5,159 nucleotides of DNA from a virus (lineage: Duplodnaviria > Heunggongvirae > Uroviricota > Caudoviricetes): the IMG/VR virus record IMGVR_UViG_3300018477_000004, positions 1 through 5,159 of that record; one strand, written 5' to 3'. The notes beneath the pieces are model-generated. The model was not told the origin of the DNA. It made no database searches and saw only the letters and a list, made by a program, of their open reading frames with translations. Made by a program: the position numbers and the translations under genes. Of the stretch, positions 2-5,159 are shown one piece after another (position 1 is the stretch's first letter; every line of letters begins with the position of its first letter).

Positions 2-1312
2 AACGGCGGATTGTTGGCTGGTATCGGCGGCGTCAACTCAAACGCTCCGAGCGTAAATGACATCGGCAATACGCTTCAGCTTATCAGGCAGAACAATGAT
101 ATTGAGCGTTCAGGCGCTAACAATGTTGGGCTTACTGCTTTGCAAGGCCTTTCAGGCATTGCAGGGGTGTTTCAGCAGGAAAAGCAGGCTCAGCGGCAGA
201 AAGAATTTCAGCAGGCGTACGCTAATGCTTATGCGTCTGGTGATCGCGGTGCTTTGCGTCAGTTGGCTACTCAATATCCAGACCAGATTGAATCCGTCCG
301 TAAAGGCATGGGGTTCATTGATGAAGACCAGCGTAATTCTATCGGCACCTTAGCGGCTGGCGCACGCCTTGCGTCATCGTCTCCAGAAGCAATGCAATCA
401 TGGCTGCAAAACAACGCCGGTGAGTTAGCTCGTGTTGGCGTTAATCCTCAGGACGTCGCTCAGATGTACCAACAGAACCCGCGGCAGTTCGGCGAATTTG
501 TCGATCACCTGGGGATGAACAGTCTCGGACCCGAAAAATACTTTGACCTACAGGATAAAATGCAGGGTCGCCAGGTTACCATGCGCGGTCAGGATCTGGA
601 TTCGCAAACCGCCGCTCGGAATCAGGCAATCACAATGCGCGGGCAAGATATCCAGGCGAATTTAGGTCAGCAGCGCATTAATCTGGACGCAGAAACAAAC
701 CGCATTAACAACGAAAATAAGCGCCTTGACCGGATGCTATCAGCAGAAACTAACGACCTGAAGCGCCAGGAAATACAGAGCCGCATAGCAGCCAACAACC
801 AGCAGTTGCAGCAGAAGCAGCAAGCGCTAAATGATGGCTACAAAGACGGCATCAACACCCTCACAACCAGCATGTTCACTCTGAACGATATCGTTAGTTC
901 TCCTTCACTTAAGAGCATTACAGGCTTACGTGGAGTAATCCCCAACGTTCCAGGCTCACAGGCTGCAGACACTCAGGCACGACTTGATACCTTTAAATCC
1001 CAAGCATACCTGACAGCGGTTCAGGCCATGCGAGGCATGGGCGCACTTTCTGATGCCGAGGGCAAAAAGCTCGACCAGGCTGTTGGTTCGCTGCAGAACT
1101 CGCAGAGCGAGGAGTCCTTTCGTCGCAACGCTGGCGTCATCCTGAACACGCTCAACCAGAAGCGTAATGAGGCGGTTGGTAAGTACGTTCAGCAAAACGG
1201 TATCAAGCGAGTGGAAGCGCCTCAGGCTTCTATAGATTACCTGAAGCAACACCCCGAGCTGTCAATCGACTTCATTAATCGCTACGGATATCTTCCATCT
1301 TTGGGGCAGTAA
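2..1312 (+). CDS. Internal virion / DNA-ejection protein, P22 gp20-like by position; 5'-partial because the frame is open to the window edge
   Basis: Long ORF in frame 2 with no in-frame stop between position 2 and the TAA at 1310-1312. The track start at 11 is a TTG with no convincing upstream RBS, so the gene most likely begins upstream of the window. The protein is Q/N-rich with a predicted coiled-coil stretch (approx. nt 650-840, '...QQRINLDAETNRINNENKRLDRM...QQLQQKQQALN...'). It sits immediately upstream of, and is translationally coupled to, the SLT-domain ejection protein, as for gp20 before gp16 in P22-like phages. The functional call rests on position and composition, not on recognised sequence identity. 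Confidence 0.8.
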   Translation, partial: NGGLLAGIGGVNSNAPSVNDIGNTLQLIRQNNDIERSGANNVGLTALQGLSGIAGVFQQEKQAQRQKEFQQAYANAYASGDRGALRQLATQYPDQIESVRKGMGFIDEDQRNSIGTLAAGARLASSSPEAMQSWLQNNAGELARVGVNPQDVAQMYQQNPRQFGEFVDHLGMNSLGPEKYFDLQDKMQGRQVTMRGQDLDSQTAARNQAITMRGQDIQANLGQQRINLDAETNRINNENKRLDRMLSAETNDLKRQEIQSRIAANNQQLQQKQQALNDGYKDGINTLTTSMFTLNDIVSSPSLKSITGLRGVIPNVPGSQAADTQARLDTFKSQAYLTAVQAMRGMGALSDAEGKKLDQAVGSLQNSQSEESFRRNAGVILNTLNQKRNEAVGKYVQQNGIKRVEAPQASIDYLKQHPELSIDFINRYGYLPSLGQ

Positions 1313-1640
1313 ATGGCTAATTACCGTGATTTGTTAGAGCAGGCTGGCGCACGTTACGGTGTGCCAGAAGGGTTGATGACTGCACTGGGTGCCAAGGAGT
1401 CTTCTTACAACCCTGCCGCAGTAAGCTCCGCCGGGGCTGTAGGATTGACTCAGGTCATGCCTGGGACATGGCGTGATATGGGTTATACCGATGAGCAAAT
1501 GCAAAACCCCGAATATCAGGCTGACGCTGGCGCGCGCTATCTGGCAAAGATGTACCAGCAGTTTGGTAACTGGCGTGACGCTCTTCAGGCTTATCACGAC
1601 GGTCCCGGCAACGTTATGAAGGCAAAGCGTGGTGAATATA
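1313..1640 (+). other. Lytic transglycosylase (SLT) catalytic domain within the ejection protein
   Basis: The ES, GLTQ and AYHDG motifs occur in the canonical order and spacing for goose-type-lysozyme-like SLT domains. Domain boundaries are approximate. Confidence 0.8.
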
Positions 1641-3706
1641 CGCCAGGACCTGAAGGCCGCGGTTACGTTGATGATCGCTTTGCTCAATGGGCGGGTGACC
1701 CGGTGACAGACTCAACAGTCGAACAGCGCGCCACCTCTGCAAAGGTACATCCTCAGCAAGACCCTAACAACCCGTTTGCACAACTGGAAGCACAGTCATC
1801 CGAACAAGTATCGGCATCAGGCGTGCAGTCAGACCCAAATAATCCATTTGCTCAGATTGAGCAGCAGGCAGCCAGTCAGCAGCCACCTCAACCCGTAAGT
1901 TCTGTCGCACCGAAACCTGTTCAGCAGCAAGGCGGAATAATGTCTGACCTTGGTAATGGACTTGCTGAAACCGGGCGCGGCTTACTACAGGCAGGAATCA
2001 ACGTAGCGAACATACCTGCTGAACTCACTGATGCTGTAACAAGCGCGGCGGCTTGGGCTGGCGGTAAACTCGGCATTGGCGATGGTACATATCAACCAGC
2101 ACCACGAGTAACAACGCAGGGATTAGAGCAGGACTTTGGCCTTCAGCAAGGCGCGCTGACTCCACAAACGACAGAGGGAAGGGTATTTGCTGAAGCATTG
2201 CCTTACCTCACTCCTGCTGGCGTTGAGAGAGCGGCGGTACAGGCACCAACACTTGCTGGTCGAATTGCTCATGGGGCAACTCGACTTCTAGCAGAAAACG
2301 CAGTTGGATCACTTGCTGCAAACAGTGCGAAAGATGATGCGGAAGCACTCGCCACCGATTTAGGCGTTGGTGTGCTGGCTGGCGGTGCTATTAACGCTGC
2401 CGGACGTGGATTAGGTGCTGCTTATCGTGGTGTTCGTGGTTCGATAGCACCAGAAGCGCAACAGGCTATCAGATTTGCAGAACGTGAAGGAGTTCCTCTG
2501 CACACCACAGACCTGTTACAACCCATTTCCCGCGTCGGAAAAATGGCGCAGACGACAGCGGAAAATATCCCCCTGGCTGGCACAAGCGGAATGAGAGCAA
2601 CGCAACAGGAAGCGAGAAGCCAGTTGGTGCAGAGATTTGCTGATAAATTCGGTGAGTATGATCCAGCTGTTGTTATTGACAGCCTTAAAGCGAAAACATC
2701 AGGAATTCGTCGCGCTGCAGGAAATCGACTGGAGCAGGTTCAGAATGCTATGGCGGGAATAAACATTCAGCCTGCAAGAGCAATTCAGCAGATTGATACA
2801 GAAATATCTAACCTGCAGAAGCTTGGTAAGGTTGCTGATAACGAGACTATTTCAAAACTTCAGTCCTATCGTGATGAGCTTGTTCGCAATGCTGGTCCTG
2901 ATGGTCCGGTAAATCTGGATTTGAAGCAATTAAGCGATCTGCGCAGCCAGTTCAGAATGGACGTGAAGGGGGAGCGACCAGTGTTACCAAACCGTTCCGA
3001 TGCTGCCATTCAGCGCGTTTACAAGGCAATGACCGACGATATCAATGGTGCCATTGGTCAGAATCTTGGCAACGATACTCTCCGTAAATATCAGCAGGCC
3101 AATGCCGTCTACGCTGACGAAGCGGCGAAACTAAAGAATACCAGGCTGAAGAATGTTCTCATGAAAGGCGACCTGACGCCGGAAGTTGTCAACAACATGC
3201 TATTCAGCAAGAACAAATCGGAAATTAAGACTCTGTATAACTCAGTTGGTCGTGTTGGCAGGGCGCAAATGCGCAATGGCATCATTGGAAAGGCGATGGA
3301 GAAATCAGGTGGTTCCCCTGACCAGTTCCTTCGGCAGCTTAACATCCTGCAAAACCAGACTGGCATCACATTTAAAGGTCAGGAAGCCGCTTATCTGAAA
3401 GGATTGAAAAACTACCTGCAATCCACGCAGCAGGCTGCAAAAGCGGCAGTAACAACACCAACAGGGCAGCAAACCATCCCGTTCATTATCGGGTATGGGA
3501 CGGCAATGAACCCGGCGACAACTGGCGCAGCGGTAAGCTACGGACTTCTTACTCGCGCCTATGAGAGCGAGCCATTCAGAAATGCAATGCTCCGAATGGC
3601 AAACACCCCACGCGGATCAACAGCGTTTGAGAAAGCCATGCAGCAGGCGCAAAAGGCCATTAACGCCCTGACTCAAGGTGCCAAGTCTGATGCGTTGTCA
3701 GAATAG
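1313..3706 (+). CDS. Large ejection / internal virion protein with N-terminal lytic transglycosylase (SLT) domain; occupies the P22 gp16 position
   Basis: 797-codon ORF from ATG 1313 to TAG 3704-3706, with GGGG 7 nt upstream of the ATG. The N-terminal ~110 residues carry the family-1 lytic transglycosylase motifs: catalytic Glu-Ser in 'GAKESSYNP' (Glu codon 1397-1399), 'GLTQVMPGTW', and 'AYHDGPGNV' (AYNAG-like). These are followed by a low-complexity linker with two DPNNPFAQ(L/I)E repeats, a Gly/Ala-rich segment ('GVGVLAGGAINAAGRGLGAAYRGVRGS', approx. nt 2360-2450) and a long C-terminal region. Confidence 0.93.
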   Translation: MANYRDLLEQAGARYGVPEGLMTALGAKESSYNPAAVSSAGAVGLTQVMPGTWRDMGYTDEQMQNPEYQADAGARYLAKMYQQFGNWRDALQAYHDGPGNVMKAKRGEYTPGPEGRGYVDDRFAQWAGDPVTDSTVEQRATSAKVHPQQDPNNPFAQLEAQSSEQVSASGVQSDPNNPFAQIEQQAASQQPPQPVSSVAPKPVQQQGGIMSDLGNGLAETGRGLLQAGINVANIPAELTDAVTSAAAWAGGKLGIGDGTYQPAPRVTTQGLEQDFGLQQGALTPQTTEGRVFAEALPYLTPAGVERAAVQAPTLAGRIAHGATRLLAENAVGSLAANSAKDDAEALATDLGVGVLAGGAINAAGRGLGAAYRGVRGSIAPEAQQAIRFAEREGVPLHTTDLLQPISRVGKMAQTTAENIPLAGTSGMRATQQEARSQLVQRFADKFGEYDPAVVIDSLKAKTSGIRRAAGNRLEQVQNAMAGINIQPARAIQQIDTEISNLQKLGKVADNETISKLQSYRDELVRNAGPDGPVNLDLKQLSDLRSQFRMDVKGERPVLPNRSDAAIQRVYKAMTDDINGAIGQNLGNDTLRKYQQANAVYADEAAKLKNTRLKNVLMKGDLTPEVVNNMLFSKNKSEIKTLYNSVGRVGRAQMRNGIIGKAMEKSGGSPDQFLRQLNILQNQTGITFKGQEAAYLKGLKNYLQSTQQAAKAAVTTPTGQQTIPFIIGYGTAMNPATTGAAVSYGLLTRAYESEPFRNAMLRMANTPRGSTAFEKAMQQAQKAINALTQGAKSDALSE
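1760..1861 (+). repeat. Two copies of an in-frame 30-nt unit encoding DPNNPFAQ(L/I)E, separated by 42 nt, inside the ejection protein linker
   Basis: Copy 1 is 1760-1789 (gac cct aac aac ccg ttt gca caa ctg gaa) and copy 2 is 1832-1861 (gac cca aat aat cca ttt gct cag att gag). The peptide is conserved but 7 of 10 codons differ at the nucleotide level. Confidence 0.7.
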
Positions 3707-3795
3707 CTTCGCAAACACCAGGAACGTGCAAAAACCAAATATGTAGAACGCAATATTCAGCATATCTCTTTGCATAAATCCTCCGTAACTGATAG

Positions 3796-4056
3796 TTAGC
3801 TGCTGTCTTTTTTATATAGCTCTTTGAGCGTATCAAAGACAATTTTCTTAACCATATCAGATTGTTGTTCTGCCATACGCTCTGCATCGTCAATGTAAAC
3901 TGATGCAGAGCTTTGTTTAGCCAATGATTCTTCAATCGCTGCAATTATCTCTGAGTTCAGAGACCTGTTATTCATCTTCGCACGCTGTTTAATTTTCGCG
4001 TGGAGTTCATGCGGAAGTCTCAAGTGAAACTGCGCCTCGTCGTATTTGCTGTACAT
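3796..4056 (-). CDS. mnt: Mnt-like ribbon-helix-helix (Arc/MetJ family) transcriptional repressor
   Basis: Minus-strand ORF ending at the TAA complement at 3796-3798. The product ('...FHLRLPHELHAKIKQRAKMNNRSLNSEIIAAIEESL...DAERMAEQQSDMVKKIVFDTLKELYKKDSS') closely resembles P22 Mnt as I recall it ('...FNFRMPMEVREKLKFRAEANGRSMNSELLQIV...DAERLADEQSELVKKMVFDTLKDLYKKTT'). The start is placed at the ATG complementary to 4054-4056, which gives a P22-like N-terminal length and has GAGG about 8 nt upstream. The longest ORF would instead start at 4089 (11 codons longer). Confidence 0.85.
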   Translation of the reverse strand: MYSKYDEAQFHLRLPHELHAKIKQRAKMNNRSLNSEIIAAIEESLAKQSSASVYIDDAERMAEQQSDMVKKIVFDTLKELYKKDSS

Positions 4057-4129
4057 CCTTGATGCCTCACCAGTTGGGTGGAATGGCATCGTAACCTACT
4101 GGATAAATACTCAATAGTACCATTTCGGT

Positions 4130-4152
4130 ATGCAATCACATCATGGTTGCAT
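4130..4152. promoter_or_regulatory. Inverted repeat ATGCAA-N11-TTGCAT in the divergent mnt/tailspike intergenic region; candidate operator
   Basis: Perfect 6-bp arms at 4130-4135 and 4147-4152, read directly from the sequence. It lies between the divergently transcribed repressor and tailspike genes and overlaps a possible leftward -10 (complement of 4151-4156 = TATGAT). Any function is inferred. Confidence 0.25.
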
Positions 4153-4166
4153 CATATCATTCGTCT

Positions 4167-4170
4167 GGAG
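4167..4170 (+). promoter_or_regulatory. Shine-Dalgarno (GGAG) for the tailspike gene
   Basis: GGAG sits 7 nt upstream of ATG 4178. Confidence 0.5.
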
Positions 4171-4177
4171 CAATGAA

Positions 4178-4519
4178 ATGTCAGATATCACCGCAAATGT
4201 TGTGGTAAGCATGCCTTCGCAACTCTTCACTATGGCTCGTTCTTTTAAAGCCGTAGCCAATGGCAAAATTTATATCGGTAAAATTGACACTGACCCGGTA
4301 AATCCTGAAAACCAGATTCAGGTTTATGTGGAGAACGAAGACGGTTCTCACGTCCCTGTTTCGCAACCAATCATCATTAACGCTGCTGGTTACCCTGTAT
4401 ATAACGGACAGATTGCCAAATTCGTTACCGTGCAAGGCCATTCTATGGCTGTTTATGATGCGTACGGTGTGCAGCAGTTCTATTTTCCGAATGTGCTTAA
4501 GTATGACCCTGATCAGTTC
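4178..4519 (+). other. Tailspike head-binding (particle-attachment) domain
   Basis: This is the block conserved with P22 gp9 residues ~1-113. Similarity is lost right after 'KYDPDQ(F)'. Confidence 0.8.
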
Positions 4520-5138
4520 AAGATTCTAATAGAAGGAGATGATGGCTATAAATACATACCAAGTCTTAATAAAATAAAATCAGAAATACCAGCAGAATAT
4601 TTTCGAACAATATCTAGCGATGACCAATCAACACTTCAGAATGCTATTGATTATGCAACATCTAAAGGATGGTCAGTATTTCTTGAAACGGATAAAGTAT
4701 ATAGAGTTAGATCTGTCAATGTTTCTTGCATGTTGCGTGGATTCTCTTTCATTGAAAGGATTGAAGGAACATCTGAAACATTGATAAATATGATGAGTGG
4801 AGGTGGATTAAAAGATCTAACTATAAATGGAATGATAACGTCAGGAAATGACACCGTTGGAAATATTGTTTGCCAAGGGTTAACTTCTGTTTTATTTAAG
4901 AATATAAAATCAATTAATGCCGGTGGCCATAACATAACAATTAGAGATACTCCTGAAAATGGAGGAAATACAATTAAAGATTGTTATATTTCAGGAACGC
5001 GTGTTGGATATGGGATTTATCTTAGGAATGTGCGTGGGGAATCAATTAAAAATACAAAGATAACAAAATGTGCTAGTGATGGTCTTGCGTTATCAAATTC
5101 ATCATTTACTGAATCCCCTGTTGAAATTGTTGGTGTAG
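4178..5138 (+). CDS. Tailspike protein, 3'-truncated: P22 gp9-like N-terminal head-binding domain fused to a divergent AT-rich beta-helix receptor-binding module
   Basis: ATG at 4178 with GGAG 7 nt upstream. The frame is open to the window end with no stop, which is probably why the ORF track omits it. The N-terminus '[46 protein letters not shown]...[13 protein letters not shown]...NVLKYDPDQ' is near-identical to the P22 tailspike head-binding domain as I remember it ('[46 protein letters not shown]...'). Downstream of ~4520 the sequence is AT-rich and encodes motifs typical of right-handed parallel beta-helix depolymerases ('[25 protein letters not shown]', repeated 'N-x-I/V-x-x-C...G-x-x-G-I-x-L' rungs). 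The final 21 nt of the window are adapter and are excluded from the CDS. Confidence 0.9.
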
Positions 5139-5159
5139 AGATCGGAAGAGCACACGTCT
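5139..5159. other. Illumina TruSeq adapter sequence (AGATCGGAAGAGCACACGTCT); a sequencing or assembly artefact, not biological sequence
   Basis: Exact 21-nt match to the start of the standard Illumina TruSeq adapter, located at the extreme 3' end of the window. Confidence 0.9.

Follow-up and report, generated by a model that had tools for sequence, protein, structure and literature searches.

The 471-bp interval between gene 16 and the tailspike gene of this P22-like virus is best explained as a minimal "ant moron", i.e., what is left on the mnt side of a P22-type immI region after the apparent deletion of arc and ant. The DNA analysed (hereafter the window) is 5,159 nucleotides long and comes from a P22-like (Lederbergvirus) phage or prophage, of whose late operon it forms the right end. 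Purifying selection acts on the mnt gene, which is intact and not a decaying relic. We consider it probable, judging from sequence comparison, that the moron carries an autoregulated Mnt of a distinct specificity class that acts on the operator predicted here.

Gene content of the window

The features of the window are listed in Table 1. The gene-16-like protein starts with an SLT lytic transglycosylase domain (Pfam SLT 2.8e-25, residues 7-110). The N-terminus of the tailspike protein matches the P22 head-binding domain (Pfam Head_binding 2.9e-67), and a Pfam Beta_helix match (1.1e-05) lies slightly under the curated cut-off. The initial annotation had described a Mnt-like gene alone in an interval of less than 0.5 kb, convergent with the ejection gene and divergent from the tailspike gene, and this arrangement was confirmed: the interval (3707-4177) contains the mnt homologue as its sole ORF, in that orientation. 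No convincing intrinsic terminator was found on either strand of the spacer between gene 16 and mnt by a terminator scan, and RNA folding of this spacer was not significant (z about -1 on both strands). The 89-bp distance recurs in at least 49 related loci. On the gene-16 side, homology of Sf101 to the window begins only at 3788, and homology with the mnt-less phages Sf6, HK620 and CUS-3 resumes at about 4162-4164.

Table 1. Features of the window, with positions counted from its first nucleotide
Feature	Position	Strand	Basis
Gene-20-like injection protein	11-1312		Pfam Inj_translocase 3.5e-67
Gene-16-like DNA ejection protein, 797 aa	1313-3706	+	ORF list; tblastn to P22 gp16
Spacer between the convergent stop codons of gene 16 and mnt, 89 bp	3707-3795		
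mnt homologue, 86 aa plus stop, MYSKYDEAQFHLRLPHEL...	3796-4056	-	Pfam, PDB, PGAP
Shine-Dalgarno sequence GGTGAGG, 8 nt upstream of ATG 4056	4065-4071	-	Read from sequence
Decayed Pant counterpart ATGGCA-17-AATACT, facing the tailspike gene	4083-4111	+	P22 alignment
Predicted Pmnt counterpart TTGAGT-15-TACGAT	4088-4114	-	Alignment to annotated P22 promoter
Predicted Mnt operator AGTACCATTTCGGTATG	4116-4132	.	Alignment with P22 Omnt
9-5-9 inverted repeat AUGCAAUCA-CAUCA-UGGUUGCAU	4130-4152	+	Sequence, allele comparison
Tailspike ribosome-binding site GGAG	4167-4170	+	Read from sequence
Tailspike gene, running off the window	4178-5159	+	Start ATG 4178; head-binding domain and beta-helix start

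The initial annotation also held that arc, ant, sieA and hkcC are missing. P22 Ant, Arc, SieA and orf59a had no tblastn match in the window, nor in about 88 near-identical loci from IMG/VR and GTDB with flanks of up to 6 kb where the contig allowed, and hkcC was taken as absent since mnt is the sole ORF of the interval. The closest cultured relatives are IME10 (96.9% identity over 901 nt) and Sf101 (96.2%). An ant or arc gene rearranged to a place just outside the window, as had been considered, found no support: P22 Ant, Arc and SieA, the Rha/KilA proteins of JEP4 and the "antirepressor" of VSe13 had no tblastn match in the complete genomes of Sf101 and IME10. ST64T was likewise without homologues of P22 Ant, JEP4 Rha or KilA and the VSe13 antirepressor (tblastn). 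The only Rha-family gene of Sf101, a possible antirepressor type, lies in the late region between the lysis and terminase genes. We discounted it as a relocated ant, since its position matches that which we take to be the position of rha in P22. The window does not hold a functional P22-type immI with arc, ant, sar and an active Pant.

The mnt gene and its protein

The protein combines an Arc-type ribbon-helix-helix domain at the N-terminus with the tetramerisation helix of Mnt at the C-terminus. Its Pfam matches are Arc (PF03869, 1e-14; residues 18-60, numbered on the 97-aa reading) and Repressor_Mnt (PF11423, 3.3e-14), the C-terminal coiled-coil domain that separates Mnt from Arc, and it also matches PDB entries 1MNT (3.4e-19, residues 6-79) and 1QEY (1.7e-08, residues 56-84). 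The longest ORF spans 3796-4089 on the minus strand and would give 97 aa from an upstream ATG at 4089. This reading was not adopted, since ATG 4089 lies out of frame in Gally and its frame is closed by a stop in P22. Because GAGGCATCAAG-N-ATG is conserved and the frame of ATG 4089 is not, ATG 4056 is most likely the true start, giving 86 aa. The NCBI pipeline PGAP annotates the identical 86-aa protein in E. coli genomes as WP_000287053.1. The label "partition protein ATPase" that RefSeq attaches to the mnt gene of Sf101 is a misannotation; it needs correction there and in other P22-like Mnt genes. The IME10 locus is unannotated, and orf14 goes undiscussed in the Sf101 paper.

At the Shine-Dalgarno sequence, GAGGCATCA is conserved throughout all aligned Mnt lineages. 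The recognition strand reads QFHLR in the window protein versus HFNFR in P22 Mnt. In the mutational work of Knight and Sauer, the DNA-contact residues of P22 Mnt are reportedly Arg2, His6, Asn8 and Arg10. In the alignment to 1MNT, Arg10 corresponds to Arg13, His6 to Gln9 and Asn8 to His11; by extension, Arg2 corresponds to Tyr5, with Lys4 adjacent. Inactivating changes at the DNA-binding residues had been considered in the initial annotation; the strand is indeed changed, but we infer a separate specificity class and not an inactivated protein, as the change is matched by a different conserved operator with altered outer bases. As a separate observation, the Citrobacter copy (L016) is apparently disrupted early in the gene.

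Predicted operator and specificity classes

A Mnt operator had been expected at 4057-4177, and a conserved dyad fits this expectation. The core TACC-N5-GGTA (4118-4130, centre 4124) is the predicted Mnt operator: in the alignment it occupies the place of P22 Omnt, and its centre precedes the tailspike ATG by 54 bp. In the mnt sense, AGGTCCAC-C-GTGGACCT of P22 aligns with CATACCGAAATGGTACT of the window. Of the first 96 loci, 89 contain TACCNAAAYGGTA, each as a single copy, and Sf101 has one copy in its entire genome. In the loci found by protein similarity, rTACC-NAAAY-GGTAC is conserved and the sequence beyond the motif diverges completely; the motif is kept in Escherichia, Salmonella, Buttiauxella (as a perfect GTACCA-AAA-TGGTAC) and Serratia, with one mismatch in Citrobacter. 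Only this protein-based set provides independent evidence for conservation of the operator, a second set having been found by the operator pattern itself. In the window allele, only 4 of the 8 positions in each half of the dyad are symmetric. No second Mnt operator was identified: Sf101 has none, and the one relaxed site elsewhere in IME10 is in line with chance expectation. Additional relaxed sites in other loci are more than 1 kb distant, in the gene-16-side flanks or elsewhere, and none of them stands beside an antirepressor promoter.

The operator and the DNA-reading residues change together across three classes. Proteins with HFNFR (P22, epsilon34) go with the operator GGTCCAC-C-GTGGACC, those with QFNLR (ST64T, SE1, Gally) with AAGACCAC-N-GTGGTCTT, which is degenerate in Brookers, and those with QFHLR, as in the window, with rTACC-NAAAY-GGTAC. 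Perfect palindromes are likewise retained beside orphan Mnt genes of the QFNLR class, so that retention of the operator is general among antirepressor-less Mnt genes.

Promoter counterparts

P22 Pmnt is TTGAGA-17-TATCAT. The lineage of the window has a 2-bp deletion in the spacer of the counterpart, and sister lineages have a 17-nt spacer. Nucleotide diversity in the Pmnt counterpart is 0.013, compared with 0.056 at third codon positions. If transcription does begin at this counterpart, the inferred start lies about 43 bp downstream of the operator centre. Because the 15-nt spacer is poor and there are other minus-strand candidates, neither the operator-promoter distance nor the sign of autoregulation is certain. 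A promoter scan of 3600-4300 gave two minus-strand promoter-like sites, which is about the chance number. An extended -10 candidate from a relaxed scan (TGaTATGAT, 4159-4151, minus strand) was dropped because other lineages do not conserve it, and the single terminator-like site in 3600-4300 was set aside because it lies inside the mnt coding region.

A divergent promoter feeding the tailspike gene under Mnt control had also been proposed. The Pant counterpart has decayed, agreeing with the consensus at 8 of 12 positions compared with 11 of 12 for P22 Pant (TTGACA-17-TATATT). At the strictly homologous place, the -10 reads TAAATA (spacer of 15 nt), and the Pant-homologous -10 is also degenerate in VSe13, JEP4, ST64T and two further loci, L014 and L015. 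The scan found no plus-strand promoter in 3600-4300 at a threshold of 9/12, which leaves the proposal without a promoter to act on.

Selection on the gene and its upstream region

Among 59 distinct mnt coding alleles, 58 were used to compare substitution rates. The mean pairwise pN was 0.018 and pS 0.095, giving a pN/pS of 0.19, and a premature stop was present in 1 of 88 mnt copies. The 121-bp upstream region has a nucleotide diversity of 0.019, versus 0.056 at third codon positions and 0.017 at first and second codon positions, and is thus constrained about as strongly as non-synonymous sites. Within this region, the operator, promoter and leader blocks show values of 0.013-0.014. The N-terminal domain is nearly invariant in the orthologues of Salmonella, Buttiauxella, Citrobacter and Serratia. 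The view of the gene as a functional relic is not supported by these values.

Prevalence and origin of the module

The module (3788-4161, 374 bp) is present in 277 of 5426 complete E. coli genomes (about 5%), and in 142 complete E. coli genomes gene 16, mnt and the tailspike gene are contiguous as in the window. A P22-type tailspike N-terminus is found in about 1144 complete E. coli genomes. In some E. coli prophages, gene 16 is joined directly to the tailspike gene, with flanks that are 94-95% identical and the module absent; the module therefore behaves as a presence/absence polymorphism. It is also absent from Sf6, HK620 and CUS-3. The exact geometry of the window, with 89 bp to gene 16 and 121 bp to the tailspike gene, prevails among the IMG/VR relatives. 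The mnt gene adjoins the tailspike gene divergently in ST64T, SE1, Gally, VSe13, JEP4 and the Proteus phage Brookers. The only exceptions among the phages examined are P22 and epsilon34, in which arc-ant lies between the two genes.

The insert that separates gene 16 from the tailspike gene was named the "ant moron" by Villafane et al. (2008, PMC2629481), who described the region as being in rapid flux. The module is an ant moron in this sense, as it is a variable non-structural insert in the interval between the gene 16 homologue and the tailspike gene that is missing in some relatives. The ant morons of ST64T, ST104 and Para1 have been reported to contain only mnt and one unknown gene (PMC2629481), and the genome paper of phage L asked whether the mnt-like gene is a remnant or has another function (doi 10.1101/2020.10.05.325894). 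Whether mnt-only loci are common had been asked in the initial annotation; comparison with the genomes of relatives shows that the locus is ordinary, and that the mnt-only layout is common and already known in outline.

The origin from a P22-type immI is illustrated by one locus, L181, in which Ant residues 191-300 and the ant terminator are all that separates a QFHLR-class mnt with its operator from the tailspike gene. In other lineages, an arc-like 5' remnant, CCGCAG...CTGCGG, occupies the position after the operator.

Possible functions of the orphan Mnt

In the preferred reading, Mnt would be made from the prophage as a tetramer and bind the single operator at 4118-4130, from where it would control its own promoter about 43 bp away, the only target identified by sequence. 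Since a repressor acting only on itself brings no obvious benefit, this explanation is incomplete as to why selection keeps mnt. The benefit could come from the bound repressor and leftward mnt transcription acting on rightward transcription into the tailspike gene or, alternatively, from action in trans on other phages. We rank plain autoregulation first, followed by an effect in cis on tailspike transcription, immunity in trans and, last, a functionless relic.

An effect in cis would mean that the Mnt-operator complex, opposing transcription from Pmnt and a stem-loop together set the level of rightward transcription into the tailspike gene. They would block transcription that is unmodified for late read-through, e.g., in the lysogen, and would trim late read-through, and most P22-like Mnt proteins would then serve the control of the tailspike and not that of an antirepressor. 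We regard this as doubtful. An IMG/VR scan with a pattern of the operator plus the Pmnt -35 returned at least 117 loci, at least 110 of which have an adjacent mnt. To the right of the operator, the tailspike gene came next in every readable case among the matches listed (110 loci), whatever lies to the left. Among the same matches listed, the left neighbour of mnt was gene 16 directly in at least 38 loci, a lipoprotein gene in at least 25, a C2-like repressor with a Rha/KilA operon in at least 8, and a second Mnt/Arc pair with a Rha/KilA/Ant operon in at least 10. The adjacency is constant even where Rha, KilA and Ant operons carry C2-like or second Mnt/Arc regulators of their own, and the divergent arrangement in ST64T, SE1, Gally, VSe13, JEP4 and Brookers agrees with it. 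However, history explains the adjacency equally well, through deletion of arc-ant and a conserved tailspike N-terminus serving as a recombination anchor. Among the matches listed (110 loci), 9 tolerate the insertion of a 0.5-0.6 kb HNH endonuclease gene between the operator and the tailspike gene, and L181 is the single case with an ant fragment before the tailspike gene. In addition, there is no credible tailspike-facing promoter for Mnt to repress, the module is missing altogether in Sf6, HK620, CUS-3 and some E. coli prophages whose flanks are near-identical, and relatives without it are viable.

The stem-loop provides a second argument for control in cis. The inverted repeat at 4130-4152 precedes the tailspike ribosome-binding site by 15 nt and probably forms a stem-loop in the RNA transcribed in the tailspike (late) sense. 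In a comparison of 23 distinct alleles, the share of paired cells is 98.1% for the sense strand and 87% for the antisense strand; the seventh pair is U.G, U-A or C-G depending on the allele, and an Escherichia sp. relative carries a double change from G-C to U-A. Where the sequence of other lineages differs, another hairpin takes this place (96% paired in sense versus 81% in antisense, 4 compensatory cells), which may descend from the palindromic PQ...LR codons of arc. A stem-loop between operator and ribosome-binding site is therefore found in several lineages, with pairing preserved only in the tailspike sense. Against this, the hairpin has no U tract and its covariation is modest, 22 of 500 shuffles reaching the score, so that the support from pairing and covariation is suggestive only. 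The folding energy was not significant alone (z = -1.26), nor was RNA folding of the operator region (z near -1), and a comparison with Rfam gave chance-level matches only and no family. To our knowledge, the 23-bp inverted repeat has no convincing match to the LexA, CRP, Fur or P22 C2 consensus. A role of the ant moron in setting the level of tailspike has already been suggested in print (PMC2629481). The broader proposal, that the Mnt-operator-hairpin cassette is a dedicated tailspike control point in most P22-like phages and the antirepressor control of P22 a special case, seems improbable to us.

Action in trans on the ant of a superinfecting relative, also put forward in the initial annotation, would consist of prophage Mnt silencing the ant promoter of incoming relatives with the same operator and preventing induction by their antirepressor. 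P22 prophage Mnt is established to repress Pant of superinfecting genomes, the protein is under purifying selection, and mnt is kept even in decayed prophages such as ET670. L181 indicates that this class of Mnt formerly stood before a P22-type ant, and ant-bearing relatives still circulate, e.g., L113, which has a P22-like Ant. However, no intact ant or arc was found behind a QFHLR-class operator among the matches listed (110 loci, IMG/VR), and the antirepressor operons present in relatives are under other regulators and have no full operator of this class. Strict conservation of the gene's own operator would also not be needed for a role purely in trans. We therefore give immunity in trans only a slim chance. 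A functionless remnant of immI decay still awaiting loss would suit a region in rapid flux (PMC2629481), the existence of decay intermediates (L181), the decayed Pant counterpart and the many relatives without the module, but it is very improbable in view of the pN/pS of 0.19, disruption of only 1 in 88 copies, the conservation of the N-terminal domain and operator from Escherichia to Serratia and Buttiauxella, and an intergenic region constrained like non-synonymous sites.

Returning to autoregulation by a Mnt of its own specificity class, the predicted operator and the accompanying residue changes would extend the classic work on Mnt and Arc specificity, and antirepressor-less Mnt genes are seen to be kept by selection in about 5% of E. 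coli genomes. Should control of the tailspike or protection from foreign antirepressors prove true, it would explain how the cassette persists amid rapid gene flux; in the case of tailspike control, the orphan Mnt would actively regulate the tailspike rather than being left over from immunity. In practical terms, the gain is modest.

Comparison with known systems

Like P22 Arc, the window protein has a ribbon-helix-helix domain, and its QFHLR is nearer to the QFNLR of Arc than to the HFNFR of Mnt. However, Arc has 53 aa and lacks the C-terminal tetramerisation helix, and the PF11423 and 1QEY matches therefore identify the window protein as Mnt-type and not Arc. With P22 Mnt it shares both domains at 49% identity, the C-terminal tetramerisation helix being nearly identical. 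The locus resembles P22 immI in its position between gene 16 and the tailspike gene, in its orientation and in a homologous upstream region with a dyad at Omnt and a Pmnt counterpart. Unlike P22 immI (mnt-Omnt/Pant/Pmnt-arc-sar-ant), the window is devoid of arc, sar, ant, sieA and orf59a, and its intergenic region, in which the Pant counterpart is decayed, leads straight to the tailspike ribosome-binding site.

The mnt-only morons of ST64T, ST104, L and SE1 also have mnt divergent from the tailspike gene (at a distance of 135 bp in ST64T), retain the operator palindrome and have no arc or ant. These morons differ in having 1-2 extra small genes between gene 16 and mnt, whereas mnt stands alone in the window. 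They also fall in a different specificity class (QFNLR with AAGACCAC-G-GTGGTCTT), and the window protein is only 49% identical to ST64T Mnt. Sf101 orf14, the IME10 locus and the gene for WP_000287053.1 carry the module with a nucleotide identity of 96-100% and an unchanged spacing of 121 bp to the tailspike gene, and Sf101 differs from the window in carrying another gene-16 type.

Composition and decay of the ant moron

The "ant moron", the variable insert between the gene 16 homologue and the tailspike gene, contains three Mnt-like genes in some relatives, such as the IMG/VR locus L113, where their DNA recognition strands read SVRMP, QVNLR and QFHLR. Inserts of the L113 type also hold Arc-like and KilA-like genes together with a P22-type Ant (85% identical). 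Among the matches listed, the QFHLR-class Mnt of a multi-Mnt moron is always the last and adjoins the tailspike gene. A predicted lipoprotein gene on the mnt strand (~160 aa, MKKSLLIIPLLLAGCAKV...) is a frequent companion of mnt in these morons and is a candidate for a prophage-expressed surface or exclusion function.

The fragment L181 is a decay intermediate, in which a QFHLR-class mnt and its operator are followed by an Ant reduced to its last 110 residues. L009, a remnant of a P22-like prophage in E. coli ET670, is heavily decayed, with IS3 and IS1 elements in its tailspike gene and with truncated ejection genes. Despite this decay, its mnt gene and upstream region are still intact.

In RefSeq, the Mnt homologues of many P22-like phages carry the name "partition protein ATPase"; this is a misannotation, since these 83-86-aa proteins are ribbon-helix-helix repressors. 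In the IME10 record, both the mnt and tailspike genes lack annotation.

Features of the window and related loci
Locus	Coordinates	Strand	Feature
Window	1313-3706	+	Gene-16-like ejection protein, 797 aa; N-terminal SLT domain, Pfam 2.8e-25
Window	4130-4152	+	9-5-9 inverted repeat, between predicted Mnt operator and tailspike ribosome-binding site
L113 (IMG/VR 2648501336_000006)	~3 kb to 0.3 kb upstream of L113 operator		"Ant moron" with three Mnt-like genes
L181 (IMG/VR)	1040-bp fragment		QFHLR-class mnt + operator, Ant C-terminal 110 residues, ant terminator, tailspike gene
L010	3908-4393	mnt strand	Predicted lipoprotein gene
L003	4158-4643	mnt strand	Predicted lipoprotein gene
L005	4284-4799	mnt strand	Predicted lipoprotein gene
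L218	1761-2237	mnt strand	Predicted lipoprotein gene
L010	4862-5371	mnt strand	HNH endonuclease gene, between mnt upstream region and tailspike gene
Sf101 (L002/L007)	14284-14577		Mnt homologue, RefSeq "partition protein ATPase"
ST64T (L214)	38250-38498		Mnt homologue, same RefSeq label
P22 NC_002371 and others			Mnt homologues, same RefSeq label

The tailspike leader and the ejection gene

The inverted repeat upstream of the tailspike gene may fold into a stem-loop in the leader of the tailspike mRNA. When alleles were compared, pairing was kept in the tailspike-sense RNA only, one pair being U.G, U-A or C-G by allele, along with one double change. In other lineages, the equivalent position is occupied by a different hairpin, and the repeat matched no Rfam family.

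In L010 and, among the matches listed, in about nine IMG/VR loci (e.g., L127, L135 and L143), an inserted HNH endonuclease gene (0.5-0.6 kb, mnt strand) separates the mnt upstream region from the tailspike gene. The ribosome-binding site of the tailspike gene and its first five codons recur on the mnt side of the insertion, consistent with a duplication of this segment, and the gene looks like a homing-endonuclease insertion.

The N-terminal SLT lytic transglycosylase domain of the gene-16-like protein makes a peptidoglycan-cutting activity probable in this ejected protein, which is longer than the 609-aa gp16 of P22.
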